This document shows positions 1 through 63,775 of a DNA stretch of 64,000 bases, piece by piece. Each line of letters opens with the position of its first letter. Within the stretch, counting starts at the first letter, position 1. This DNA is from an uncultured Acidobacteriota bacterium (GTDB taxonomy: Bacteria > Acidobacteriota > Vicinamibacteria > Vicinamibacterales > CAVVIG01), in contig CAVSLA010000005.1 in assembly GCA_963728825.1 (NCBI GenBank), forward strand, positions 254,634-318,633, read 5' to 3'. The position numbers were made by a program, and so were the translations under genes. The notes below the pieces were generated by a model. It saw only the letters and a program-made list of their open reading frames with translations. It was not told where the DNA came from and did no database searches.

Positions 1-2270
<2,270 letters not shown>

Positions 2271-2392: not shown

Positions 2393-2414
2393 GCGCGGGG
2401 GTGGGGCCCCGCGC
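2393..2414 (+). repeat. GC hairpin element, copy at aroB (GCGCGGGG-GTGGGG-CCCCGCGC)
   Basis: The 14-nt core GGGGGTGGGGCCCC lies at 2397-2410 and ends 12 nt before the aroB ATG (2423). It forms an 8-bp stem with a 6-nt loop. Confidence 0.75.
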
Positions 2415-2422
2415 ATTCAAAC

Positions 2423-3499
2423 ATGACTCGCATCGACGTCGACACACCGTCCCGCCGCTACGCCGTCACGCTGGATGATGGGCTCCTCGAACGGCTGCCG
2501 CGGCTGCTCGAAGAAGTGAAGGCGCCGGCGCGCCGCTTCATCGTCTCGAGCCCGCTCGTCTGGCGCTTTCACGGTGCGCGGCTGGCCAAGGTCGGCATCG
2601 GCGAGCCAATCCTCGTGCCCGACGGCGAGCGATTCAAGAACCTTCAGAACGTCTCGCGCGTCTACGAGACGCTGATTCGCGCCAACGCCGATCGCGCCTC
2701 CACGCTGCTGACATTCGGCGGCGGCGTGATCGGCGACATGGCCGGATTCGCGGCGGCCACCTACCTGCGCGGCATCGCGCTGATCCACGTGCCCACGACG
2801 CTGCTCGCCCAGGTGGATGCGTCGATCGGCGGAAAAGTCGGCGTCAACCATGCGCTCGGAAAAAATCTGATCGGGGCGTTTTATCAGCCGGCTGCCGTGG
2901 CGATCGACCCCTCGGTGCTGAACACGCTGCCGCGCCGCGAGTTCCGGGCCGGACTCTACGAGGTGATCAAGTACGGCATGACCTCGAGCCGCGAGCTGTT
3001 CGAGCAGGTGGGACGCGAGCGAACCGCGATTTTCTCGAAGGAGCCCGGTCCGCTGACGTCGGTGATTGCCGCCTCGTGCCGCATCAAAGCGACGGTCGTG
3101 GCGGCCGACGAAAAGGAGGCCGGACCGCGCCGGGTGCTGAACTTCGGGCATACGGCGGGACACGCGCTGGAGGCGGTGACGAAGTACCGCCGCTATCGCC
3201 ACGGCGAGGCGGTTGCTTACGGGATGCTCGTCGCCGCCGAGCTCGGCGTGATGCGCGGCGCCCTTGCCGCCGCCGATCGGGCTGCCCTGGCCAGCCTGAT
3301 CGCCAGCCTCGGGCCCCTCCCACCGATTGCGGATGTCACCACACGGGAGATCCTCGAGGCGATGCAGCACGACAAGAAGATGGTTGCCGGCCGGCTCAAC
3401 TTCGTCCTGCCCACGGGCATCGGCAGCACGACGATCGTCGACGACATCACGGAGAAGGAAATGAAGGCGGCGTTGGTGAAGGTCGGATTAAAGAAATAA
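2423..3499 (+). CDS. aroB: 3-dehydroquinate synthase
   Basis: ORF track 2378..3499, with an in-frame ATG at 2423 (MTRIDVDT). Motifs: GGGVIGDMAGFAAATYLRG, PTTLLAQVDASIGGKVGVNH and NFGHTAGHALE. Confidence 0.9.
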   Translation: MTRIDVDTPSRRYAVTLDDGLLERLPRLLEEVKAPARRFIVSSPLVWRFHGARLAKVGIGEPILVPDGERFKNLQNVSRVYETLIRANADRASTLLTFGGGVIGDMAGFAAATYLRGIALIHVPTTLLAQVDASIGGKVGVNHALGKNLIGAFYQPAAVAIDPSVLNTLPRREFRAGLYEVIKYGMTSSRELFEQVGRERTAIFSKEPGPLTSVIAASCRIKATVVAADEKEAGPRRVLNFGHTAGHALEAVTKYRRYRHGEAVAYGMLVAAELGVMRGALAAADRAALASLIASLGPLPPIADVTTREILEAMQHDKKMVAGRLNFVLPTGIGSTTIVDDITEKEMKAALVKVGLKK

Positions 3500-3504
3500 C
3501 CCTA

Positions 3505-3551
3505 GAGATTTCAGGATTTGAGGATTTTAGGATTTGAGGATTTGAGGATTT
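3505..3551. repeat. array of six octamer words [G/C/T]AGGATTT (left arm)
   Basis: Reads gagattt caggattt gaggattt taggattt gaggattt gaggattt, starting right after the aroB stop. Confidence 0.8.
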
Positions 3552-3553
3552 AT

Positions 3554-3607
3554 GGCGGACCTAAGAGGTCCGCCCTACGTACGTAGGCCGGGCCTCTCAG
3601 GCCCGGC
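3554..3607. terminator. bidirectional terminator region between convergent genes
   Basis: Hairpin GGCGGACC-TAAGA-GGTCCGCC at 3554-3574. Perfect 14-nt palindrome CCTACGTACGTAGG at 3574-3587. Hairpin GCCGGGCC-TCTCA-GGCCCGGC at 3587-3607. Confidence 0.55.
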
Positions 3608-3634
3608 GTTCGCGGGCGGTCCGTTCCCGTTCTG

Positions 3635-3678
3635 AAATCCTCAAATCCTGAAATCCTGAAATCTCATTTGAGGATTTA
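3635..3678. repeat. array of complementary words AAATCCT[C/G] (right arm, inverted relative to 3505-3551)
   Basis: Reads aaatcctc aaatcctg aaatcctg aaatctca, then tttgaggattta. It pairs as an inverted repeat with the left arm. Confidence 0.8.
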
Positions 3679-5416
3679 TTCCCTCATTGCCTCGAGCGCC
3701 CGCACCCCCGAACGCATCGACAGCAGCCAGGTCGCGATGCTGAGCGTGGCGACGCCGACGAATGCCAGGCCGATGCGCAGCTGATCGCCGAGCGTCAGCG
3801 GCTGCTCCCGCACCATCCTGAACAGGTAGACCGCGGACGACCACCCCAGGGCCGCGATCGTCACGATGATGAAGAGGACCGCCAGGATCATGAAGGCCAC
3901 GCCGCCGTAGGAGCCGGCGACCTGATTGGTGTCGGCGCCGAACCGCGGATATTTCGCGCCGAGGCCGATCGCCAGGCCGACCAGCGCGAAGGTCATGAAC
4001 ACGATCCCGAACGCCGACACCAGCTTCAGGAACGGATCGACGCCGAGAAACTCGTTGGCGGTGATGGTGAGCCCTTCGGTCAGGACCAGAATCGGCAGAA
4101 TGCCGGTCCAGAACTTCGACCAGAGGAAATCGCGAAACGACACCGGCGATACGCGGATGATCCAGAACGCACTGCCTTCGGCGGATACCGCCGGGAATAC
4201 GAAGCGGACCGCCACCGTCGCCAGCACGAAGCCGGCGAGGCCGAGGTTCAGAAAGGCGTAGGCGTTCTTCAGCACGCCGCTCATGTAGGGAATGCGATTC
4301 AGATCGATCGCGCGGAAGTTGTAGAGATACAACAGCACGAGCGCCAGCAGCGGCAGGAGCTGCAGCCACTGGCTGACGTCGCGCAGAAAGACCTTGACGT
4401 CTTTCACGAACAGCTGCCGCCGCACGGTCGACAGCGGCAGCACGCCGGCCACCGCATCGACCACCTTCAAGGGAGTCGACACGCGCCTTGGCCGCTTCCT
4501 GGGAGCGGCTGTAGCCGACGAACTGCCAGCGCTCGTGCGCGGCGCCCAGCATCACCGTGAACGCCAGCGCCGTCGTCCACAACGCCGAGCCGTGCAGCGC
4601 GTCGACGCCGCCATGCAGCGCGGCAAACAGCGACTCGCCGGCCCAGAACGACGGCAGCATCGGCGTGATCGGCGATTGCAGCGTCGCGAAGAAGTCGGCG
4701 ATGTCGGGGAGCGATTCGACGCGCATCAGCCGCTCGGGCTGGATGAAACGAAACACCAGCACCAGGCCGACCCCGAAAATCAGGCCGGTCAACATCAACA
4801 CGTCCCGGGCGCGCCGCGCCGGAAAGACGTTGACGATGAGCAGCGTGACGGCGGCGCCGACCGCGACCGGGATGGCCGAGAACGGCGCGACGACGACCAC
4901 GGCCGTGACGTAGAACTGCCACGGGGCGCCGCGGGCGGCGCCGACCCCGAGCAGCACCGGCGTCAGAAAGACGACGACCATCCATGAGGCCTGGATGACG
5001 GTCCGCGAGAAGCGCGCGAGAAAGAGACGACGCGAGGCGACCGGTGCCACCAGAAGCAGCCGCAGGTCGTCGGCAAGAAAGAACGTCGACAGCGACGTCA
5101 CCACGCCGCTGAAGGCGAGAAAGGCGAGAAACGATGACGAACAGCCAGGACAGGCCCAGCCGGAGCAGGAAGTCGCCGAACTCCTCGTAGCCGAGCAGCT
5201 GACCGAGTGAGCCAGTAGGCGCCGCCGAACAGCGCGGCGAACACGCCGATGCCGATGCCGCCGAAGATGGCGACCCGCACGAAGATCGCCGCGGTCGGCG
5301 CGCCGGGCGCGATTGCGCGAGGCGAGCAGGTGCGGCGCGAGCAGAAACGGAAACGCCGGGCCCTGGACCGCGCTGACCCGAGGGCCGTGGCCCGAGGGGA
5401 GCCAAAGACCCGTCAT
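3676..5416 (-). pseudogene. ABC-2 type exporter permease; reading frame interrupted about 4 times (true decay or consensus indel errors)
   Basis: Good membrane-protein translation, but it is spread over ORFs 3641..5416, 5098..5280, 4467..5429 and 3676..4482. Frame hops lie near 5315, 5208, 5133 and 4485. The start ATG at 5416 overlaps the upstream ATPase stop (ATGA). Confidence 0.6.
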
Positions 5417-6171
5417 ACGGCCTCGTCAATCTCCTGCAGCGCAGACCCGCCGGTCAGCTTCAGGAACACCGATGTCAGCTGATCGTCCTCGCCGCCGGCG
5501 AGCGCGCGCACCTCGTCGACGGTGCCGCTGGCGACGATCCGCCCTTTGTTGATGATGCTCAGTCGATGGCAGACTTCCTGCGCCACTTCGAGCGTATGGG
5601 TGCTCATCAGGATCGCCACGCCGCTCTCGCTCATCCGGCGGAAGACGTCCTTGATCAGCCGCGCGCCTCGCGGATCGAGGCCCGACCATCGGTTCGTCGA
5701 CCGCGACGGCACGCGGCCGGTGAAGAAACGCGGCGCTCATCACCAGCCGCTGCTTCATGCCGTGTGAGAAGCTCTCGATCAGCTCGTTCTCCCAGCGCCG
5801 CAGCTCGAACAGGTCGAGCATCTCGTGAACGCGACTCATGACGCCGTTGCCGTTCAAGCCGTACAAGCCCGCCATGAAATCGGAGAAACTCGCCGGCGGT
5901 CAGCTTCTCGTAGATGAACGGGCCGATCGGGGATGAAGCCGAGTGAGCGCCTTGGCGGCTTCCGGCGCCGCCGCCAGATCGTGGCCGTTGACGATCACCC
6001 GGCCGGCCGTCGGTTTCAACAGGCCGGCAATCATCCGCAGCGTCGTCGTCTTGCCGGCGCCGTTCGGCCCGAGGAAGCCATGAATCTCCCCTTCGGTTCG
6101 ACGGTAATGTTGACGTGATCGACGGCCGTGAACCGGCCGTACTGTTTGACGAGATCGTGGACGGCAATCAT
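5413..6171 (-). pseudogene. ABC transporter ATP-binding protein; reading frame interrupted 5 times
   Basis: The frame-walk gives [14 protein letters not shown]...[23 protein letters not shown]...[20 protein letters not shown]...SHGMKQRLVMSAAF...VDEPMVGLDPRG...LMSTHTLEVA. Hops lie at mononucleotide runs near 6088-6091, 5950, 5921, 5878 and 5682. Confidence 0.65.
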
Positions 6172-7721
6172 GGTGCCCCTCGCCCGACGAGAATCGGCGT
6201 CGCCCCGGCGCTCGAGCTCGACGTCGAGCACGTCCATCCTCAGGCGGCCGATCATCGGCAGAATCGCCGCCTGCTTGTCGAGTCCTCCGCGCGCGAGGCG
6301 AACGTGCGTCGCATCCGCTGGGAACTGATTGAACGTCGGATCAACGGGCAGCCAGAGCCCGCGGCCGCCATCCTCGAGATACACCTCCGGCCAGGCGTGA
6401 TAGTAGAAGGCGCCCTGGATCCCGCGGACGTAGGCCAGTCCGACGGCGATCCGCGCCGGGATGCCAAGCGCGCGGGCCAGCGCGACATACAACGCCGTGT
6501 GCTCGTTGCAGTCGCCGACTTTCGTCCGCAGCACCTCGCGCGCGGACGGCAGGCTGACGGTCGGCTTCTTGTCGAGGATGGCATTGACGTGACGGGTCAG
6601 CCGCTCGGCTTCTCTCGAGCGGTTGCCGGCACGCCCGCCACCGCCGCTTCGGCTTCCGCGCGGATTTCGGGAGCATCACTTTCGATGAGCGGCTCCGGGA
6701 CGGAGGTGCTTCGCGCATCGGGATCCGGCGCGCCCGGCGACGAAGTGACCGGGCGTCGACGATATCGACGACGTCGCCGGCGATCGTCTGGCCCGACGCC
6801 CTGCAGCTCGGGGTGCGACAGATCGGCGCCGGTCAAGCGGAACCGCAGACGACGCACGTCGCGCGGCTCGTCAATCCGCTGCTTCATGATCGGCACGACC
6901 GCCGAGAGCCTGAGGAGGTCGGTCTGGACACGCTGCGGGACCGCCAAGCCGTCGGGCCGTCTCCGCCGGTTCCTGGATGGTCATCAGGCCGAGCGGACTC
7001 TCTTCTCGCACGACCTCTCCGGTGTCGGTGACCCACGCGGTCGTCTGCAATCCCTTGAACGATCATCTCGACGCGGAACGCCGGGCACGCTGGTATTGCC
7101 CGCCCTCACGATGGCGCGGCTGCCAACAATCGCTTCCACCGGTGCGTTGGTCAGCGTCGCCGGATCGAACATGCGTCCACTGGTGCCGCGCCCCAGGGAA
7201 CAAGTCCGCTGTTGGCAAGAATCCGCGAGAAGTTGAGGTTCATCGTCGGCGGTTCTGCCAGCTCGATCACTTGCTGCCGGGTGGCGCCGCCCGATGTGAT
7301 GTCGACCGTCAGGCGGCAGTGCGTCGCTCGACAGGCGACGGGCGTTCGACCGATCCGCGAATCGCAATCGCGCCGGTGCCGGGATCGAGCGAGAACTCGA
7401 ACGACCGCAGCGCGAAGTCTCGGTCGACTTCGCGCCGTCGTCTTCATCACCGCGGCGGTCGTCGCGCCGAGCAACGACATCTGGAGCTGACCGTCTTCTT
7501 GAATCCGGAACCCGTTCTCCGAATCCGGGTGGTCTGACGGACGGTGAATCCGATCTTCTCGCCGCGGTAGTAGACGCCGTGCCAGACGGCGGTCGGACCG
7601 TATTGCGCGAGGTTGGCCGACAGCGCGCCGGGCGAGGCCTGACAGGTACGCGCGGTTGATCGACGACCGCCATGCAGCCGACCCACGCCAACAGCATCGC
7701 GAAGGACAGCGGTCGGGTCAT
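6168..7721 (-). pseudogene. transglutaminase-like protein with an N-terminal signal/anchor; about a dozen frame interruptions
   Basis: MTRPLSFAMLLAWVGCMAVV at the start. The transglutaminase core is GDCNEHTALYVALARALGIPARIAVGLAYV...AFYYHAWPEVYLED...[21 protein letters not shown] counted about 13 hops by hand. The likely stop TGA at 6168-6170 overlaps the ATPase ATG. Confidence 0.5.
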
Positions 7722-7747
7722 CGAGCGCGGCAGCGGCCTGAGGAGCC

Positions 7748-9158
<1,411 letters not shown>

Positions 9159-22950: not shown

Positions 22951-23889
22951 GGGCGCGCTCCGGACTTCGCCACCTGCTCGACGAAAATATCCTCGAGCGT
23001 CTCGCGGAGTGGATTCAGCGAGATGACGGTGGCGCCGGCCGCTGCCAGATCCGACACGAAGCGATCGGGTGGCGGGTCGAGCGGTAGTTCCACGGTGTAG
23101 CGCCCGTCGCTGATTCTCGTGATGCGCCGCGCCTTGGTTTCGAGCATCCGGGCGAGCGCCTCGTCGACCGAGCCGACCACCACTTCCCAGCCGTGCGCCT
23201 GCAGATCCAGCATGTCGGACAGCCGGCCGCTCTTCATGAGGCGGCCCTTGGCGAGAATCGCCACTCGGCTACAGAGCGCTTCGGCGTCGCTCAGCACGTG
23301 CGAGCTGAAGAAGACAGGTCCAGCCTCGATCGCGCAGCCGAAGAATCAGCGCGCGGACCTCGCGGCGGCCGATCGGGTCCAGACCGGACATCGGCTCGTC
23401 GAAGATCACGATCTCCGGATCGTTGATCAGCGCCTGCGCGATGCCGACGCGCTGGAGCATACCCTTGGAGAACTTCCGCAGCTGGAGCCGGCGCTCGCGG
23501 CCGATGCCCACCTCGTCGAGCAGACGCGAGACACGCGTTCGCCGGTCGGCGGCGTCGTAGCCGAACAGGCCGGCGAAGTACGACAGCAGCTCTTCGGCCG
23601 TCAGATAATCGTAGAAGTACGGATTTTCGGGAAGATATCCGAGCCGCCGCTTGATCGACAGGTCGCCGACCGGCCGGCCGAAAATCTCCGCCCGGCCCGA
23701 GGTCGGGAACACCAGCTGCATCAGCAGCTTCAGCGTGGTGGTTTTGCCCGCGCCGTTCGGGCCGAGAAATCCAAACACCTCACCCGCTTCGACCTCGATC
23801 GACAGGCGATCGAGCGCACGGTACGGCCGTTTCCGCCAGAAGCCGACCGCGTAGTCCTTGGTGAGATCGTAGGTCGCGAGCGCGGGCAT
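22947..23889 (-). pseudogene. ABC transporter ATP-binding protein, one frame interruption near 23330
   Basis: MPALATYDLTKDY...[15 protein letters not shown]...FSKGMLQRVGIAQAL...IFDEPMSGLDP comes from ORF 23269..24063. The protein continues as ...VFFSSHVLSDAEALCSRVAILAKG in ORF 22947..23297. Confidence 0.7.
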
Positions 23890-23899
23890 TTCTCTCAAG

Positions 23900-24006
23900 G
23901 GTGCCGGGGGCAGGGTGCCGGGGGCCGGGTGCTCGGTGCCGGGGGCCGGGTGCTCGGTGCCAGGTGCAGTGTGCTCGGTGCCGGGTGCCGCGCCGCGGGG
24001 TGCCAG
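23900..24006. repeat. GGTGCC-word array, including two 21-nt tandem units (left arm)
   Basis: Reads ggtgccgggggca gggtgccgggggcc, then gggtgctcggtgccgggggcc twice, then degenerate copies. Confidence 0.75.
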
Positions 24007-24115
24007 AACGACCGTGGCATGCACGACTTTGCATGAAATTGCGTTTTCAGGCCTCGCCGGCACGGCTCGAACGCCGAAAGCATCTCGCGACCTCGTTGCA
24101 CCTTCAATCTCTTAT

Positions 24116-24174
24116 CGGCACCCGGCACGCGGCACCTTGCACGCGGCACGCGGCACCCTGCACCCAGCACCCGG
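24116..24174. repeat. GGCAC-word array (right arm, inverted relative to 23900-24006)
   Basis: Reads ggcacccggcacgcggcaccttgcacgcggcacgcggcaccctgcacccagcacccggcc. Confidence 0.75.
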
Positions 24175-24184
24175 CCGACAGGCC

Positions 24185-25381
24185 CTATTTGGCCCGGGCG
24201 AGCTCGTAGGCAATCGCCTGATCGAAGTAGGCAGTCGGCAGAGACCCGTCGATCTTCACGCCGTTGATGAAAAACGTCGGCGTCGCGCCGATACCGAGCT
24301 GGCGCCCGTACGCCACGTCGGCCTTCACCTGCTCCAGCGTCGCTTGATAGCGGGCGTCGAAGTCGGTGACCTGGCCGACGTCGCGGGCGCCCTGGCGGAC
24401 CCGGTCCGGCGTCAGCCCGGCCTGGTTGGCGAACAGCCACTCCTCGAGGGCCTCGGCCCGCCCCTTGGCGCGTGCCAACCGGACTGCCACCGCCGCCTCA
24501 CAGGCGGCTTGATGCTGTCCGCCAGTGTTGCATTCCTGCTCGAGTGGATAGTCACGCGTGACGAGCCGGACCGCTCCGGGATGGCTCGACTCGTATTTCG
24601 CGAGCACGCTCTTGTAGGCCCGGAACGAATCCGCGCAGGCCGGACACTGATAGTCGTTGAACTTGACGACTAGGACTTTCGCGCCCTCGGCAGGAACATT
24701 CAGCGTCAGGCGTGGCTGCGCCGTGTAGAAGCGTTCGAATTCAGCGCGCCGGCTTTCCTCGAGCTCGGCCGAGGAAACCGGAGCGCTGCCCTCCGCGGCG
24801 GCGACCGTCGCACTGTCACGCGGGAACAACACCAGCGCCGAAACCGTCCCCACCACGAACAGCGCGGTCAGCACCATCGCCATCGGGCTCTGGCGCAGCG
24901 CCTTCAAGTCGGTGATGGCGCGCCCCGGCACACTGGTCATGGGAACCGAGGTCGCCGCGCCGGAAATCAGGAACAAGGCGATGACGGCCACGTAGGTGAT
25001 GACACAGAGCACGCAGACGAGACCGAGGATGAAAAACGAGGCGTAGCCGAGGTAGAGCACGATCGCGAGACCGATCGTCGACGCCGCAAACAAGTAGGCG
25101 GCCGCGCTGTCCCGGACCGTCGTGGGGCCTCGAAGCGCCGCCACCGTCAGGAGCGTCGCCAGGGCGAACCAGATCACCCCGAAGACCGCCACCGAGACGC
25201 CGGCGAACGTTCCATAGCGGCTCGCATATACCTGCGTGCAGCTGACGCTGGCGTTGACGTCGCAGAAGCTGATGTACGAAGGGTCGGCGAGGTGCTGGTA
25301 GTGAACGTAGGCGGCCGTCGCGGAGGCACCGAGTCCGACCAGCGCGGATACGAGAGCGAGTCGAGCAACCGTCTGGCTCAT
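24185..25381 (-). CDS. VKOR-domain / DsbA-like thioredoxin fusion protein (disulfide-bond formation)
   Basis: ORF track, 398 aa. The N-terminal multi-TM region has FCDVNASVSC and a CVLC pair, as in VKOR. The C-terminal thioredoxin fold carries the CPAC active site (FNDYQCPACADSF). Confidence 0.75.
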   Translation of the reverse strand: MSQTVARLALVSALVGLGASATAAYVHYQHLADPSYISFCDVNASVSCTQVYASRYGTFAGVSVAVFGVIWFALATLLTVAALRGPTTVRDSAAAYLFAASTIGLAIVLYLGYASFFILGLVCVLCVITYVAVIALFLISGAATSVPMTSVPGRAITDLKALRQSPMAMVLTALFVVGTVSALVLFPRDSATVAAAEGSAPVSSAELEESRRAEFERFYTAQPRLTLNVPAEGAKVLVVKFNDYQCPACADSFRAYKSVLAKYESSHPGAVRLVTRDYPLEQECNTGGQHQAACEAAVAVRLARAKGRAEALEEWLFANQAGLTPDRVRQGARDVGQVTDFDARYQATLEQVKADVAYGRQLGIGATPTFFINGVKIDGSLPTAYFDQAIAYELARAK

Positions 25382-29357: not shown

Positions 29358-29446
29358 TGGCGCCGGGGCCCCACCCCCGGCGCGTTCTCACGCTGATGCC
29401 TCGCCTCGGACTCACTCGTCCTCGGCTCGGCATGGCCGCAGCCGCT
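29358..29446 (-). repeat. about 90-nt intergenic element carrying the GC hairpin (copy at pilS); near-identical to 52226-52318
   Basis: Hairpin GCGCCGGGG-CCCCAC-CCCCGGCGC (plus-strand reading) at 29360-29383, with the 14-nt core at 29365-29378. A second imperfect hairpin follows (gatgcctcgcctcgg ... cctcggctcggcatgg). Confidence 0.75.
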
Positions 29447-30718: not shown

Positions 30719-30770
30719 GAATTCCTAGTCTGCTCATTCCCAATTCCGAATTCCTAATTTCGAATTCCTA
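30719..30770. repeat. array of GGAATT-type words between pilT and pilC
   Basis: Plus strand reads gaattccta ... cattccca attccg aattccta atttcg aattccta. It includes three GAATTC palindromes. Confidence 0.65.
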
Positions 30771-31901: not shown

Positions 31902-31905
31902 CAAT

Positions 31906-31940
31906 CAGTCCTCAGTCCTCAGTCGTCAGTCATCAGTCGT
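31906..31940. repeat. five tandem heptamers CAGTC[C/G/A]T between pilB and pilT
   Basis: Reads cagtcct cagtcct cagtcgt cagtcat cagtcgt. On the mRNA strand the copies nearest the pilT start read GAGGACT. Confidence 0.8.
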
Positions 31941-31943
31941 CGA

Positions 31944-34800: not shown

Positions 34801-34829
34801 GCTGACAGTATCGGTCGTAGCGGTCTCAG

Positions 34830-34961
34830 ATTGGTGTCAAAGCGGGGTCGGAGACCTGTCAGAACGGTATCGGAGCGGTGTCAGAGCAGTGTCGGAGGAG
34901 TGTCGGAGCAGTCTCAGACAGGTGTCAGAGCGGTGTCAGACCTATGTCGGAGCAGGGTCGG
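34830..34961. repeat. 12 strictly phased 11-bp units, consensus AGC[G/A]GTGTC[A/G]G, with degenerate copies back to about 34801
   Basis: Hand segmentation gives units ending at 34840, 34851, 34862 and so on to 34961, with no phase slip. It fills the spacer between the pdaD stop and the start of the barrel gene. Confidence 0.85.
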
Positions 34962-34971
34962 AGCCGCCTTG

Positions 34972-43583: not shown

Positions 43584-43601
43584 GCGGGGGAGGGGCCCCG
43601 C
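43584..43601 (+). repeat. GC hairpin element, copy at the EF-G gene (GCGGGG-GAGGGG-CCCCGC)
   Basis: Core GGGGGAGGGGCCCC at 43586-43599 ends 13 nt before the ATG at 43613. The following GCGAGGGTAAACG resembles the rpsE copy (GCGAGAAAGTAAAA). Confidence 0.7.
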
Positions 43602-51472: not shown

Positions 51473-51559
51473 TTACAATGTGAAATTTACAATGCAAAAT
51501 TCCGGAAACTTTGGGCCATTCTATCCGTAATTTCCAATTGTAAATTCCCAATTGTAAAT
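51473..51559. repeat. AT-rich inverted word arms (TTACAATG x2 / CAATTGTAAAT x2) downstream of rplQ
   Basis: Reads ttacaatgtgaaatttacaatg ... ccaattgtaaattcccaattgtaaat. It is the only clearly AT-rich stretch in this part of the window. Confidence 0.7.
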
Positions 51560-52225: not shown

Positions 52226-52318
52226 TGGCGCCGGGGCCCCACCCCCGGCGCGTTCCTACGCTGATGCCGCGCCTCGGACCAAGAACCGGTTCCTCGGCTC
52301 GGCATGGCCGCAGGCGCT
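52226..52318 (-). repeat. about 90-nt intergenic element carrying the GC hairpin (copy at rplQ); near-identical to 29358-29446
   Basis: Hairpin at 52228-52251, with the core at 52233-52246. It shares ggcgccggggccccacccccggcgcgttc..acgctgatgcc.cgcctcgg...cctcggctcggcatggccgcag.cgct with the pilS copy. Confidence 0.75.
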
Positions 52319-53324: not shown

Positions 53325-53440
53325 TGCTTGCTTCCTTTCGCTGACGGGCCCGCAGACGGGCCTCCGGACCTGTAAGTGACCGCCGGCCTCACGCCACAGG
53401 TCCGTGTAAGGCTGCGGGACGGCGGGTAGCGACGAGAGAA

Positions 53441-54070
53441 CTACTTCGAGTACAGCTCGACGATCAGCTGTTCCTGCACGGGCAGATTGATCTGCTCGCG
53501 CGTCGGCATCGAGACGATGCGCCCGGTGCTCGAGTTCGCATCGAACGACAGCCATCCGGGAATGCCGCGACCCTTCACTTCCTCCATCGCATGCTCGATG
53601 GTCGGGTTCTTCTGGCTGCGCCCCAGCACCGTGACGAGGTCGCCTTGCCTGACCGAATAGGACGGGATATCCACCTTCTTGCCGTTCACCAGGAAGTGTC
53701 CATGCCGGACCAGCTGACGCGCCTGCGGCCGTGATGTCGCCAGACCCAGCCGGTAGACGACGTTGTCGAGCCGTCGCTCGAGCAGCTGCAGCAGCGTCTC
53801 GCCGGTGATGCCGCGGGTCCGCTCCGCAGCCTCGAAGTAGCGGCGGAACTGATCCTCGAGCACGCCGTAGATGCGCTTCACTTTCTGTTTCTCACGCAGC
53901 TGCAGGCCGTATCCCGCGAGCTTCGCCTTGCGCGACTTGCCGTGCTGCCCCGGCGCGAAGTTGCGCTTCTCGATCGCACACTTCTCGGTATAGCAACGCT
54001 CACCCTTGAGGAACAGCTTCATGCCCTCGCGGCGGCACAGGCGGCAGACGGGTCCGATGTAACGAGCCAT
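53441..54070 (-). CDS. rpsD: 30S ribosomal protein S4
   Basis: ORF track, 209 aa. [26 protein letters not shown]. Confidence 0.9.
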
Positions 54071-54083
54071 ACTTCCTTTCGGT

Positions 54084-54222
54084 GAGATTTGAGGATCTGG
54101 GATTTCAGGAGTTTAGGATTTGGGATCTCAGTCCTCAGACCGAAATCCGGATCCAAAACCTCACATCCAAACCCCTCAACTCCAAATCCTCAATTCCTGA
54201 GATCCTAAAATCCTGAAATCTC
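54084..54222. repeat. inverted arrays of GAGGATTT-family words between rpsK and rpsD
   Basis: Forward words at about 54084-54130 (gagattt gaggatct gggattt caggagtt taggattt gggatct). Complementary words at about 54150-54222 (aaatcc...aaatcctc aattcctg agatccta aaatcctg aaatctcc). Confidence 0.8.
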
Positions 54223-54225
54223 CGA

Positions 54226-54678
54226 CTACACTCGTCTCCGCTTCGGAGGCCGGCAGCCGTTGTGCGGGATCGGCGTCACGTCGCGGATCGATTTCACTTC
54301 CAGTCCGACCGTCTGCAGCGCCCGGATCGCCGATTCGCGCCCCGAGCCCGGCCCCTTCACCCGCACGTCCAGCGAGCGCATCCCGACCGCCTTCGCGGCG
54401 TTGCCGGCATTGAGCGCCGCCTGGGTCGCGGCAAACGGCGTCCCCTTGCGCGATCCCTTGAAGCCGATGCCGCCGGCGCTCGACCACGCGACGACGTTGC
54501 CTTCGGTGTCGGTGATGGTCACCACGGTGTTGTTGAACGACGCCTGAATGTGCGCCAGACCGTGATGAACGACCCGTTTCTCGCCGCGCTTCTTGAAGGT
54601 CTTCTTGGGCCGTCCGGCCCGCCCTTCTTTTTTCTCTGGTGTTGCGCCCTCGGGCGCCGCCGCGTCAGTCTTTGCCAT
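54226..54678 (-). CDS. rpsK: 30S ribosomal protein S11 (N-terminal extension of about 20 aa)
   Basis: ORF track, 150 aa. [18 protein letters not shown]...[13 protein letters not shown]. Confidence 0.9.
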
Positions 54679-54679
54679 T

Positions 54680-54702
54680 CCCTTAGCCTTTGGCTGTCAG
54701 CC
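54680..54702. repeat. short AGGGCT-family word cluster between rpsM and rpsK
   Basis: Reads cccttagcctttggctgtcagccctaa. Confidence 0.5.
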
Positions 54703-55077
54703 CTAAACCGTTTTCTTCTTCGCGATGGCGCCCTTGCGCGGCCCTTTACGGGTTCGCGCGTTGGTGCGGGTGCGCTGACCGTGGACCGGCAGCCCGCGGC
54801 GGTGCCGCATGCCGCGGTAGCAGCCAATTTCCATCAGCCGCTTGATGTTCATCGAGATCTCTTTGCGGAGGTCCCCCTCGACGCCACCCTGCTCCTCGAG
54901 CACGCGGCTGATCTTGCGCACGTCGTCTTCGGAGAGATCTTTTACTCGAAGGTCGGGGCTGACCCCCGCATCCTTGAGGATGACGTTCGAGCGCACCCGG
55001 CCGATGCCGAAGATGTAAGTGAGCCCAATCTCGATCCGCTTCGTGCGCGGAAGGTCGACGCCTGCTATTCGTGCCAT
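54703..55077 (-). CDS. rpsM: 30S ribosomal protein S13
   Basis: ORF track, 124 aa. [26 protein letters not shown]. Confidence 0.9.
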
Positions 55078-55101
55078 ATGCCCTCAGCCTTAGCCCTTAG
55101 C
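55078..55101. repeat. AGGGCT-family heptamer words spanning the rpmJ stop
   Basis: Reads atgccc tcagcct tagccct tagccct ga. Confidence 0.55.
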
Positions 55102-55210
55102 CCTGACGCTGTTTATGCTTTTGATTTGGACAGATCACCCGCACCACACCGCGGCGGCGGACGATCTTGCACTTGTCGCAAATCCGTCGAACCGATGCTC
55201 GAACTTTCAT
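55097..55210 (-). CDS. rpmJ: 50S ribosomal protein L36
   Basis: Own translation gives [37 protein letters not shown]. It is too short for the ORF track. ATGA overlap with the infA stop. Confidence 0.9.
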
Positions 55211-58237: not shown

Positions 58238-58684
58238 TCAGGCAATGATTTCGGTTGCGCCGCCGGCGGCCGCGATTTTCTCCGCGGCTTTGCCGCTGAA
58301 CTTGTGCGCGTGGACCGTGAGGTTCTTCGTGACCTCGCCCCGTGCGAGGATCTTCACCGGACGGTTACGGCCCCCCACCAGGCCGCGCTCTCGGAGCATA
58401 TCCGGTGTCACGATGGTGCCGGCATCGAACTTCTGCGCGAGCGTGTCGAGGTTCACGACTTCGTACTGCACGCGGAACGGATTGTGGAAGCCGCGCTTCG
58501 GCACGCGGCGGTGCAGCGGCATCTGGCCGCCCTCGAAGCCGCGCTTGAACTTGAAGCCGGACCGCGACTTGGCACCCTTGTGCCCGCGCCCCGCCGTCTT
58601 CCCCTGCCCCGACCCCTGGCCGCGCCCGACCCGCTTCTTGGAATGCTTGGCGCCCTTCGGGGGTTTCAGATTCCCTAAATCCAT
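58238..58684 (-). CDS. rplO: 50S ribosomal protein L15
   Basis: In-frame ATG at 58684 ([26 protein letters not shown]) within ORF 58238..58738. Confidence 0.85.
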
Positions 58685-58734
58685 AAATCCCAAATCCTCA
58701 AATCCTGAAATCCTCAAATCCTGAAATTTCAGGA
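58685..58734. repeat. GAGGATTT-family word array between rpmD and rplO
   Basis: Plus strand reads aaatccc aaatcctc aaatcctg aaatcctc aaatcctg aaatttcaggatc. A 14-nt palindrome CCTGAAATTTCAGG lies at 58720-58733. The words continue into the first rplO codons. Confidence 0.8.
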
Positions 58735-59486: not shown

Positions 59487-59598
59487 GCGGGGCCCCACCC
59501 CCGCTCGTGCTTCGACGTTGCTCAGCACGACCCTGAGCCTGTCGAAGGGTCGCAGACGCGCTCGCACCGTGGTGCTCGCGCGTATCCAGAACCGGACG
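59487..59598 (-). repeat. intergenic element with the GC hairpin (59487-59504) and a tail shared with the 63-bp repeat
   Basis: Core at 59489-59502, 14 nt from the rpsE ATG. The tail gcgcgtatccagaaccggacgtc (about 59578-59600) matches ggcgtatccagaacaggacgtc of the units at 63602-63775. Confidence 0.7.
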
Positions 59599-59973: not shown

Positions 59974-60030
59974 AAACCCTTAGCCCTGAACCCGAGCCCC
60001 TTGAGCCCTGAGCCCTTTAGCCCTGAGCCC
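59974..60030. repeat. array of about 8 AGGGCT-family words filling the rplF-rplR spacer
   Basis: Reads aaaccct tagccct gaacccg agcccct tgagccct gagccct ttagccct gagccct. Confidence 0.8.
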
Positions 60031-60566
60031 TACTTGGCCCCTGTCTTCCCGGCCTTCTTCTTGAGAACCTCGCCGGTGTAGCGGACACCCTTCTGCTTGT
60101 AGGGGTCCGGCTTGCGCAGCCGGCGGATGTTCGCGGCGACCTGGCCGACCAGCTGGCGGTCGACGCCGGTCACCGTGATGTGCGTCTGCTTCTCGATCGC
60201 GACGTCGATGCCCACCGGGATGTCGAAGACCACCGCGTGCGAATAGCCGAGCGCGAAGATTACCTGCTTGCCCTTGACCTCGGCGCGGTAGCCGACGCCG
60301 ACGATGTCGAGCTCTTTCTTGAATCCATCGGTGACGCCGGACACCGCGTTCGCCACCAGGCTGCGCGCCAGCCCGTGGAACTTCGCGAGCTCAGGGCTGT
60401 CGCCGCGCTTCGCGACCAGGTGACCATCGGACAGCTCGAAGTTGATGCCACTCGGGAAACCCTGCTTCAACTTCCCCTTGGGGCCCTGTACTTCCACGGC
60501 GCCGTCCAGCACCTTGACGGTGACACCTTTCGGGATCGTGATTGGCTTCTTACCGATACGAGACAT
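60030..60566 (-). CDS. rplF: 50S ribosomal protein L6
   Basis: ORF track, 178 aa. [17 protein letters not shown]. Confidence 0.9.
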
Positions 60567-61014: not shown

Positions 61015-61033
61015 AGCTCTCTCAATCTTGACC

Positions 61034-61100
61034 GTGCCTGGTGCCATCCGCGTGCCGCAGTGCCGAGTACCGCACGCAGCACCGCGGCACCCTGCACCCG
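61034..61100. repeat. inverted GTGCC / GGCAC word arms between rpsN and rpsH
   Basis: Reads cgtgcct ggtgcca ..cgtgccg cagtgccg | gcacgcagcaccgcggcaccctgcacccggcc. Same word family as at 23900-24174. Confidence 0.7.
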
Positions 61101-61111
61101 GCCCCCTGGCC

Positions 61112-61321: not shown

Positions 61322-61345
61322 GCGGCGGGGCCCCACCCCCGGCGC
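61322..61345 (-). repeat. GC hairpin element, copy at rpsN (one stem mismatch)
   Basis: Core at 61327-61340, 29 nt from the rpsN ATG. It is followed by agtgagccgcaggcgctactgctgcc, which resembles the 3' part of the element at 52226-52318. Confidence 0.7.
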
Positions 61346-62609: not shown

Positions 62610-62630
62610 GACTGTCTCCACACCGTCCGG

Positions 62631-62689
62631 CGTTCGTCGTGCGTCGTTCGCCGGGCCGCCGACGAACCTCGAACGTCGAACGACGAATG
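62631..62689. repeat. long imperfect hairpin built from CGTTCG / CGAACG words between rpsQ and rplN
   Basis: Left arm cgttcgtcgtgcgtcgttcg (62631-62650) pairs at 16 of 20 positions with cgaacgtcgaacgacgaatg (62670-62689). The loop is 19 nt. Confidence 0.7.
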
Positions 62690-62690
62690 T

Positions 62691-63575: not shown

Positions 63576-63593
63576 GTGGGGCCCCACCCCCAC
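63576..63593 (-). repeat. GC hairpin element, copy at rplP (GTGGGG-loop-CCCCAC)
   Basis: Core at 63578-63591, 15 nt from the rplP ATG. Confidence 0.7.
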
Positions 63594-63601
63594 TCGCCGA
63601 C

Positions 63602-63775
63602 GCCTTCGCGCCGTAGCGCTCGGCGTATCCAGAACAGGACGTCGCCGCGCTTCCATACTCCGATGCCTTCGCGCCGTAGCGCTCGGCGTATCCAGAATAG
63701 GACGTCGCCGCGCTTCCATACTCCGATGCCTTCGCGCCGCAGCGCTCGGCGTATCTAGAACCGGACGCTAGGCGG
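63602..63775. repeat. 63-bp tandem repeat, about 2.75 copies, between rpsC and rplP
   Basis: Units start at 63602, 63665 and 63728 (gccttcgcgccgtagcgctcggcgtatccagaacaggacgtcgccgcgcttccatactccgat), with 1-3 substitutions between copies. The period also shows as a 21-aa repeat in the spurious ORF 63504..63758. Confidence 0.9.

Follow-up and report, generated by a model that had tools for sequence, protein, structure and literature searches.

About 18 arrays of 7-8 nucleotide (nt) words, repeated head to tail, lie within a 64,000-nt stretch of DNA from an uncultured Acidobacteriota bacterium (contig CAVSLA010000005.1, positions 254,634 to 318,633 of the forward strand), which was analysed at its full length and is referred to here as the window. 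With a G+C content of 65%, the window carries the S10-spc-alpha ribosomal-protein cluster on its minus strand, from ~51.5 kb to the window end, and a type IV pilus cluster at ~10-34 kb that includes pilB, pilT, pilC, pilS/R, a prepilin peptidase and minor pilins, both recognized by their Pfam matches. The closest SecY among species-level genomes (85% amino acid identity) places the organism in the Acidobacteriota order Vicinamibacterales. The nearest DNA, contig L085, is 85.5% identical at the nucleotide level over the ribosomal cluster, while a metagenome contig, L088, encodes a SecY 93% identical to that of the window.

All of the arrays listed in an earlier note, made from the letters of this DNA alone, are present within a few bases of where it had placed them, as judged by reading the sequence and by Tandem Repeats Finder (TRF), which assigns them a period of 7 or 8. 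Compared with 100 dinucleotide-preserving shuffles of the window, the family 1 word AGGATTTNAGGATTT, with up to 2 mismatches allowed, has 18 matches against 0.04 expected, distributed among three loci (3505-3665, 54099-54222 and 58677-58722); the family 2 word AGGGCTNAGGGCT has 14 against 3.7, a count reached in 0 of the 100 shuffles; and the family 3 word GGTGCCNGGTGCC has 32 against 10.5. Although 84.5% of the window is coding, 955 of the 996 array bases (96%) are non-coding, which bears out the suspected enrichment between genes, and the arrays constitute roughly one tenth of the window's non-coding DNA. Fifteen arrays occupy co-directional spacers and two convergent ones, and none is found in the 6 divergent spacers, a class with few members here. 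One array thought to lie in a spacer (1016-1043) is real but intragenic: its heptamers are in frame, fall between the FAD_binding_2 and Succ_DH_flav_C domains, and encode 10 residues.

Most of the arrays in the window are not plain direct repeats, and instead constitute the two arms of a palindrome of the form (word)n ... (reverse-complement word)n. These palindromic modules are the largest inverted repeats of the window, with arms that can pair in several 7-nt registers (Table 1). The rpsK-rpsD locus, for example, was previously described as one array; the locus is genuine, but it resolves into an inverted pair, as do the loci between the VKOR-DsbA and ABC ATPase genes, after rplQ, and in the rpsN-rpsH and rpsQ-rplN spacers. 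When aligned, all four family 1 arms in the window finish with the identical variant unit GAGATTTCAGGATTT, and both family 3 modules have GGCCnnnnGGCCGGGTGC..AGGGTGCCGCG as their opening, immediately past a stop codon (the rpsN stop, and the module at 24184), while the cores and loops of modules built from the same word are not conserved. The hairpin modules end ~13-25 nt before the start codon, with a separate Shine-Dalgarno (SD) site in between. That of rpsD, AAGGAAG, is ordinary and lies outside the rpsK-rpsD stem, so the suggestion that long hairpins sequester the SD words does not hold for the site that rpsD actually uses.

One-armed (solo) arrays precede rplO, rplR, rpsM, rpsK, pilT and pilC. 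The claim that arrays run up to the start codon applies to those of rplO, rplR, rpsM, rpsK and pilT, but not to the hairpin modules. The rplO array even enters the coding sequence by 8 nt (ATGGATTT), with an 18-nt palindrome, ATCCTGAAATTTCAGGAT, at the rpmD stop; the rplO leader is predicted to fold weakly (z -1.8), and that of rplR somewhat more stably (z -2.8). At their other ends, several arrays take in the stop codon of the upstream gene: the first unit of the rplF-rplR array contains the rplF stop (TAGGGCT), the rpmJ-rpsM array overlaps the rpmJ stop (CAGGGCTAA; unit TAAGGGC), TAGGGCT follows from the rpsM stop in the rpsM-rpsK remnant, and the first unit of the pilT-pilC array contains the pilT stop (TAGGAATT). 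An upstream stop as first unit offers another source for the AGG core of their words. Near the pilT start, two copies read GAGGACTGA and yield a GAGGA 7 nt before the ATG, with the distal copies drifted, as had been noted; for pilC, a separate GGAG site lies 6 nt ahead of the ATG.

Table 1. Repeat arrays, palindromic modules and other repeated elements in the window, with predicted RNA folding (z relative to shuffled sequence)
Feature	Position (strand)	Setting	Words, arms and copies	RNA fold
Family 1 module	3505-3665	between convergent aroB (2423-3499, +) and ABC_tran_2 gene (3676-4470, -)	5' arm (GAGGATTT)n 3505-3551; 3' arm (AAATCCTC)n 3632-3665; 91% complementary; core 3552-3631 with two GC-rich hairpins	-97.7 kcal/mol, z -9.3
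Family 1 module	54084-54222 (-)	rpsK-rpsD spacer (Pfam genes)	arms 54151-54222 and 54084-54130	-62.9 kcal/mol, z -3.4
Family 1 solo array	58677-58734 (-)	fills rpmD-rplO spacer (Pfam genes)	(C/G)AGGATTT x ~6.5	z -1.8 (leader)
Family 2 array	1016-1043 (-)	in frame in nadB/sdhA-like open reading frame (ORF) 651-2270	four exact-length heptamers (CAGCCCT)	
Family 2 remnant	54680-54702 (-)	rpsM-rpsK spacer	TAGGGCTGACAGCCAAAGGCTAAGGGA; weak, degenerate; one match, 2 mismatches	
Family 2 solo array	55078-55104 (-)	between rpmJ and rpsM; ends at rpsM ATG		unstructured, z 0.08
Family 2 solo array	59974-60031 (-)	fills rplF-rplR spacer	(N)AGGGCT x ~7.6	z -2.8 (leader)
Family 3 module	23899-24175 (-)	between VKOR-DsbA gene (24185-25381) and ABC ATPase gene (23269-23889)	arms 23899-23990 and 24116-24175; (GGGTGCC) x 13 and (GGCACCC) x 8.6 flank a 125-nt core; several 7-nt registers	-170 kcal/mol, z -6.1
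Family 3 module	61033-61108 (-)	rpsN-rpsH spacer	inverted pair	z -2.3
Hairpin module	62622-62690 (-)	rpsQ-rplN spacer	(CGTTCGT)n / (CGAACGN)n	z -1.6
A/T-rich inverted pair	51473-51559 (-)	directly after rplQ	TTACAAT.. / ..ATTGTAA; arms 51473-51506 and 51524-51557; 14-nt super-unit	z -4.3
Solo array	31902-31943 (-)	fills pilB-pilT spacer	(N)GACTGA x ~5	z +1.4, less structured than shuffles
Solo array	30719-30770 (-)	pilT-pilC spacer	(N)GGAATT	z -0.6
GGGGGTGGGGCCCC element	2397-2410 (+), 29365-29378 (-), 43586-43599 (+), 52233-52246 (-), 59489-59502 (-), 61327-61340 (-), 63578-63591 (-)			
Tandem repeat, 63-nt unit	63597-63767 (-)	rpsC-rplP spacer	2.7 copies, 94% identical	
Tandem repeat, 11-nt unit	34814-34964	fills pyruvoyl arginine decarboxylase / TraF_2-like spacer	GTGTCAGAGCG-like, ~13 copies, 68-75% matches	

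The same kind of array is widespread in the order. In 80 species-representative loci around secY, TRF reports 368 rows of period 7, 162 of period 14 and 81 of period 8, and no period-7 or period-8 array arises in shuffled loci. Across 513 ribosomal-operon spacers of at least 40 nt from 81 genomes, autocorrelation rises to 0.397, 0.36 and 0.326 at lags of 7, 14 and 21 over a baseline of ~0.27, while coding sequence has a 3-nt periodicity only. Orthologous spacers of these operons span anything from -4 to more than 200 nt, and a predicted fold with z < -2 is found in 154 of the 208 periodic spacers versus 116 of the 305 non-periodic ones. The trait is patchy: ten or more arrays are present in 22 of the 61 loci that span 15 kb or more, and another 19 of the 61 lack arrays altogether. 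The words at any one spacer also vary by species, including TTGGTGA, CTGATTG, GGTCATTT, CAGTTTC, GGCTCAA and GGAAGCT.

Inverted pairing dominates here too, with 271 of the 331 ribosomal-spacer arrays (82%) being arms of inverted pairs and 60 being solo. The usual layout is a stop codon, (word)n, an optional GC hairpin, (reverse-complement word)n, then ~18 nt with an ordinary SD site, and the start codon. The 5' arms start a median of 3 nt past the stop codon, and the median distance from the end of a 3' arm to the start codon downstream is 18 nt; of the 218 3' arms and solo arrays, only 40 reach to within 6 nt of it. The stop codon itself is included in 33 of 173 5' arms and solo arrays, and 52% of this group begin between -3 and +4 nt of the stop. 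As an indication of seeding from gene ends, this histogram of array starts is more informative than a test of array edges, in which the unit next to the array is at background identity (25%), a result biased by the fact that TRF already extends matches fully. Arms average ~4.4 units, or ~32 nt, a copy number whose lower bound is fixed by the detection threshold, and the lengths of paired arms correlate (r = 0.34, p = 0.001). Mismatches within arrays are concentrated, one position of the unit holding 54% of them against 44% expected (p ~ 1e-14). Runs of GGG or CCC occur in 112 of 540 arrays (21%), or in 16% if at least four copies are also required; in the window, only families 2 and 3 have GGG in every unit.

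The inverted pairs have a fixed polarity, identical when read on either strand, with a T-rich 5' arm (65:23) and an A-rich 3' arm (106:20), perhaps because hairpins with a U-tract after them are avoided. No terminator-like site was found on the mRNA strand of the window's ribosomal cluster, and no module resembles an intrinsic terminator. The words of 5' arms contain a stop codon in 27% of cases on both strands and those of 3' arms in 29% versus 23% on the complement, and only solo words show an excess, at 42% and 20%. Single mismatches in stems flanked by Watson-Crick pairs comprise 126 G.U, 173 A.C and 391 of transversion type; because G.U is not favored over A.C, as a preference for wobble pairs in the sense strand would require, the stems bear no signature of selection for an RNA helix. 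The whole window has no Rfam 15 match at the gathering score, and a search of 53400-55200 at E <= 1 gives chance-level matches only. CRISPR arrays were considered and ruled out, there being no unique spacers between the units.

Could such repeats be an artefact of metagenome assembly? The window's own organism has no second assembly retrievable by exact-protein look-up of RplO and SecY, so its copy numbers rest on one assembly, and a look-up of L14, which is identical in many species, yields only relatives with at most 85.5% nucleotide identity. In one relative (L034), moreover, a heptamer hairpin in the rplF-rplR spacer is interrupted by a run of N, a scaffold gap, and such arrays can break short-read assemblies. 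Against this, the same architecture is present in ~50 species-level genomes, including chromosome-titled or manually curated records and contigs whose names (NODE_, k141_) indicate different assemblers, as well as in metagenome contigs, and same-word arrays stand at orthologous sites in L085, L012 and L016. An artefact is therefore extremely improbable, arrays of this kind being present in many independent assemblies of other genomes.

The idea put forward for the window was that the arrays are iterated ribosome-binding modules or stand-by pads, whose G-rich words would attract 30S subunits and increase or buffer translation, and whose paired arms would sequester them. Solo arrays lend this some substance. 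They are G-rich on the sense strand (44:5 for G>C versus C>G), and their words pair with the anti-SD tail at -4.6 kcal/mol, compared with -1.1 for their complements (Wilcoxon p = 5e-8). Several solo leaders are unstructured (z +1.4, -0.6 and 0.1), and the pilT array retains GAGGA at a 7-nt spacing where its distal copies have lost it. At rplO, the last GAGGA before the gene is at the position of the native SD site of relatives, which read ..TTTCAGGA.. in this region, and L047 has a CAGGATTG array there; the rplO array may thus derive, judging from these sequences, from the native SD region. Precedents also exist in the TAACTGA arrays that lie just before start codons in Beggiatoaceae, ribosomal-protein operons included (PMC4679880), and in Nostoc heptamer repeats that altered reporter expression (bioRxiv 10.1101/2022.06.06.494920).

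As a general account, however, this explanation is improbable. Only 21 of the 331 arrays combine a solo arrangement with a position no more than 12 nt from a start codon, the large majority being hairpin arms, which lack the G-rich sense bias of solo arrays and whose 3' member is A/C-rich and followed by a separate SD site. Solo words are no more SD-like than their own letters in permuted order (-4.53 versus -4.33 kcal/mol of anti-SD duplex energy, p = 0.78; a core SD motif in 15.5% of words versus 14.9% of permuted words), so the SD look is compositional, and the G bias is equally strong in arrays farther than 12 nt from a start codon. Convergent gene pairs, as at 3505-3665, and the inside of an ORF also harbor arrays; relatives mostly have words without SD likeness at these spacers (CTGATTG, GGTCATTT and CAGTTTC among them); and in close relatives the same spacer may have no array or a replaced one. 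Multiple ribosome-binding sites are not the general rule for these arrays, then, although single loci such as pilT and rplO do fit the original proposal. Arrays are not equally dense inside genes or, when solo, indifferent to strand, and their placement relative to start codons is mixed. The G-rich sense composition could, we infer, serve ribosome stand-by or the avoidance of C-rich RNA of an anti-SD-like or Rho-loading kind.

Comparison of orthologous spacers, a check named in the earlier note, reveals whole-unit differences between close relatives. Two genomes with 99.1% secY nucleotide identity (L032 and L139) differ by one TGATTAG unit. At 96% identity, L032 and L132 differ by one extra TTAGGGG unit, by a CGGGAYT hairpin that has grown from 3+3 to 5+5 units with both arms together, by modules that are present or absent (119 versus 28 nt and 19 versus 64 nt), and by the replacement of modules with unrelated words at three spacers. 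Because such near-identical genomes differ in units and modules, array turnover must be far faster than coding divergence. Against the window's 50-nt rpmD-rplO spacer, L085 has a 113-nt hairpin of GAGTTGG-type words and L088 has 2 nt; a hairpin occupies the rpsN-rpsH spacer in all three, made from three different words; and the CGTTCGT hairpin of the rpsQ-rplN spacer is shared with L085, in a different copy pattern, and absent in L088. At rplF-rplR, L012 and L016 carry the window's word (GGCTCAN) as a two-armed hairpin. A tandem duplication with a longer unit was also seen in the rplP-rpmC spacer of L032 and L132, where one genome has two copies of the 25-nt unit GAATGGCGCAGGAGACAGCGTCATGA and the other three.

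The recurrence of words at loci tens of kilobases apart, first remarked on in the window, proves to be far above chance. In the 81 genomes, with one mismatch allowed, a word is common to both members of 35% of the within-genome pairs of unlinked sites and of 9% of the between-genome pairs, compared with 1.8% for random 7-mers, and exact sharing is 17% within and 2.5% between genomes. Since words are shared within genomes well beyond the between-genome level, independent local slippage alone is insufficient. At the same time, at least six unrelated words are in use within 64 kb of one genome, and the longest common substring of same-word arrays is 15.5 nt within a genome versus 14.9 nt between genomes, a very small effect. 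Unit order being barely more alike within genomes, recent copying of whole modules has little support.

Genome-specific vocabularies of this kind might be expected of mobile palindromic elements, such as repetitive extragenic palindromic (REP) sequences and bacterial interspersed mosaic elements (BIMEs) or MITEs (miniature inverted-repeat transposable elements), non-autonomous sequences copied by a trans-acting enzyme, for example a Y1 transposase of the REP-associated tyrosine transposase (RAYT) type, and later modified by slippage. The shared terminal unit of the family 1 arms and the shared opening of the family 3 modules after a stop codon point in the same direction, as does the replacement of one module by an unrelated one at 96% identity, and the preference for co-directional and convergent over divergent spacers matches that of REP elements. 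A REP-like GC hairpin, ACAGGGTAGGGGCGGGTCTTCAGACCCGCCC, occurs at rpsM-rpsK in both L032 and L132 and at rplF-rplR in L132 only, a distribution that suggests small hairpins have been copied between spacers in this lineage; a REP-like GC-hairpin pattern seen in relatives is not enriched in the window. We consider mobile elements an unlikely explanation nonetheless. Same-word modules lack conserved cores or loops, same-word arrays from one genome resemble each other scarcely more than those from different genomes, the arrays often take in the native stop codon, and no target-site duplication is evident between filled and empty sites, either among the window, L085 and L088 or in the L032 and L132 spacers. 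Nor is there a transposase, RAYT or reverse transcriptase among the ~60 window ORFs scanned with Pfam.

A further alternative is that the arrays are binding sites of a lineage-specific RNA- or DNA-binding protein, or G-quadruplexes, that regulate neighboring genes. The single hypervariable position per unit with the rest conserved, the restricted and clade-specific set of words, and a copy number held tightly near 4-5, as reported for Xanthomonas, are what such sites might look like, and with GGG in each unit families 2 and 3 could fold as GGGAATC does (PMC4692102). Yet super-units of 14 or 16 nt would also yield a hypervariable position, and the copy number has a lower bound that detection imposes. 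The six or more unrelated words within 64 kb, and the presence or absence of arrays among close relatives, argue against site-specific regulation, and with 79% of arrays free of G-runs, G-quadruplex formation is not general here. This alternative, accordingly, is given little probability.

Our preferred explanation is that the arrays are fast-evolving long simple-sequence repeats with units of 7 nt, less often 8 nt, abundant in many but not all Vicinamibacterales, which we regard as probable. The typical element is a palindromic module of ~4-5 word copies per arm. Units are gained and lost singly, as in replication slippage, with both arms changing together; modules appear, vanish or give way to others at a pace well above that of coding-sequence divergence; and each genome or clade prefers a few words of its own at unrelated sites. 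Arrays would grow by slipped-strand mispairing, while the likeness of the arms would be maintained either by selection for self-pairing or by copying templated on the hairpin (template switching at quasi-palindromes). Hairpin-templated copying is an established mechanism for quasi-palindromes in Escherichia coli, and by analogy it may, at the DNA level, be the source of arm symmetry here. A process of copying between sites, or a word-specific factor, would then give each genome its vocabulary. Arrays would survive only where they are harmless, after stop codons in co-directional and convergent spacers, and in tolerable forms: self-folding inserts that loop out and keep the stop and the next ribosome-binding site close, or unstructured tracts that are G-rich on the sense strand. 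That families 1 and 2, like the words at pilT and pilC, look SD-like would be due to this sense bias and to seeding by gene ends, the seed being either a stop codon followed by G (TAGG...) or, at rplO, the native SD region, and not to selection for multiple ribosome-binding sites.

Several points weigh against these long simple-sequence repeats being all there is. The 7-nt period has no mechanistic account, the only published idea, a polymerase footprint, being speculation, and slippage alone leaves both the genome-specific words and the replacement by unrelated words at 96% identity unexplained. The single variable position could signify constraint on the other six, and hence a binding site rather than neutrality, which we infer from the pace of sequence turnover. 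A hairpin at rpsN-rpsH, with a median spacer of 96 nt and a minimum of 18, exists in nearly all genomes and hints at a position-specific role. It is conceivable, if quite unlikely, that modules are actively propagated, with an enzyme writing genome-specific words at gene boundaries through between-site copying or templated addition, or that a co-evolving protein reads the words. We keep this in view because words are shared 4-7 times more within genomes and because of the 96%-identity replacement, the shared end units and the hypervariable position. If true, a lineage-specific layer of control or parasitism would overlie the spacers of essential operons, including those for ribosomal proteins.

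Other repeats accompany the heptamers. A second dispersed element, unrelated to them and with the core GGGGGTGGGGCCCC, has 7 copies in the window versus 0.03 expected, all on the sense strand of the next gene and with an A-rich tail after the core. Six of these end 12-25 nt before the start of aroB, a pilS-like kinase, an EF-G paralogue, rpsE, rpsN and rplP, and the rplQ copy ends ~90 nt upstream. Longer versions (~100 nt) align into two subfamilies, with copies in L085, L041, L063 and L064, and the element has no Rfam match. The 63-nt unit repeated in tandem between rpsC and rplP is the 5' part of this element and yields a ~230-nt spacer upstream of rplP. The 11-nt array has a period unlike that of all other arrays and no inverted partner. 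Finally, several genes in 3676-8555 seem split or truncated and could be pseudogenes or the result of indel errors: the ABC_tran_2 gene covers profile positions 292-540 only, ORF 4467-5429 lacks a Pfam match, an ABC_tran fragment lies at 5426-5875, and a sigma-54 activator matches the second half of its domain only. A tRNA-Gly called by ARAGORN at 4569-4653, inside ORF 4467-5429, may be spurious, and AT skew reaches 0.27 at 4-6 kb.

With array-rich species beside array-free ones, the Vicinamibacterales (soil Acidobacteria subdivision 6) constitute a rich natural experiment in which the cell's most conserved operons contain as many as hundreds of bases of these repeats. Comparative tests become possible, such as searching for genes that track array abundance or determining copy-number spectra in populations. 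For annotation, the arrays call for caution: G-rich examples should not be taken as multiple ribosome-binding sites, and arrays explain faulty start calls (for instance, a 166-amino-acid rplO ORF that begins at an upstream GTG) as well as errors in short-read assembly. A literature search found no published report of heptanucleotide or other tandem repeats for Acidobacteria or Vicinamibacter.

The closest known counterparts are in other phyla. Xanthomonas GGGAATC arrays are intergenic, occur as 70-75 convergent inverted pairs in each genome, differ in length from species to species, and favor aligned ORFs while being scarce between divergent ones (Rehm et al. 2015, PMC4692102); most typing loci of X. 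euvesicatoria are heptamer variable-number tandem repeats, including GGGATTT at 6-18 copies among strains (PMC8002079). The arrays described here share with those of Xanthomonas and with GGGGA(C/T)T of Nostoc PCC 7120 the head-to-tail 7-nt organization, the intergenic location, the preference for aligned ORFs and a size of about four units. With Xanthomonas they further share the predominance of convergent inverted pairs able to form stem-loops and a variable length at the same gene pair, and related words (GGGATTT, GGGAATT, GGGGATC) are found in Vicinamibacterales. They differ in that a genome uses several unrelated words, 8-nt units are common, S10-spc-alpha operon spacers are saturated with arrays, and the phylum is Acidobacteriota.

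More broadly, heptamers are the most abundant long simple-sequence repeats (LSSRs) in many large, high-G+C genomes, as the survey of Mrazek et al. (2007) is related in PMC4692102 and PMC4679880. As relayed there, LSSRs have units of 5-11 nt with heptamers commonest, belong to large high-G+C genomes of non-pathogens and are proposed to originate by slippage, all of which agrees with our arrays; the genomes named are those of Burkholderia, Cyanobacteria, Actinobacteria and Xanthomonas, and the definition, in that account, includes neither palindromic pairing nor genome-specific vocabularies. Every tested defining feature of the heptamer LSSR class was found in the Vicinamibacterales arrays except G-quadruplex potential. 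The Beggiatoaceae TAACTGA repeats (MacGregor 2015, PMC4679880) are similar in lying a few nucleotides before starts and in ribosomal-protein operons, where a translational role was proposed, and the pilT word (N)GACTGA resembles them. They are, in contrast, a single word in 2-6 copies, nearly all direct (1 indirect in 170 sets), while Vicinamibacterales words are many, mostly in inverted pairs, and tied to the stop before them instead of the start.

REP/BIME sequences and MITEs are also dispersed intergenic palindromes that follow genes in co-directional or convergent spacers and give stem-loops in mRNA, but the elements here showed no conserved GTAG-type head or core, no target duplication and, among the Pfam-scanned ORFs of the window, no transposase, and their arms consist of 7-8 nt units in tandem, with changes that involve whole units. 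MITEs are a poor fit, with no target duplication seen at filled versus empty sites and with unrelated internal sequences, although family 1 of the window does share terminal units. The cyanobacterial short tandemly repeated repetitive (STRR) sequences of Calothrix and Anabaena are tandem heptamer families dispersed between genes, with lineage-specific words, for which hairpin pairing is not a defining trait. One of them, STRR1 (CCCCAGT, the complement of ACTGGGG), presumably resembles the ACTGGNA words common in Vicinamibacterales. Heptamer repeats are thus already known elsewhere, and what the Vicinamibacterales add is a new phylum, many words per genome, and a high density of arrays within ribosomal operons.

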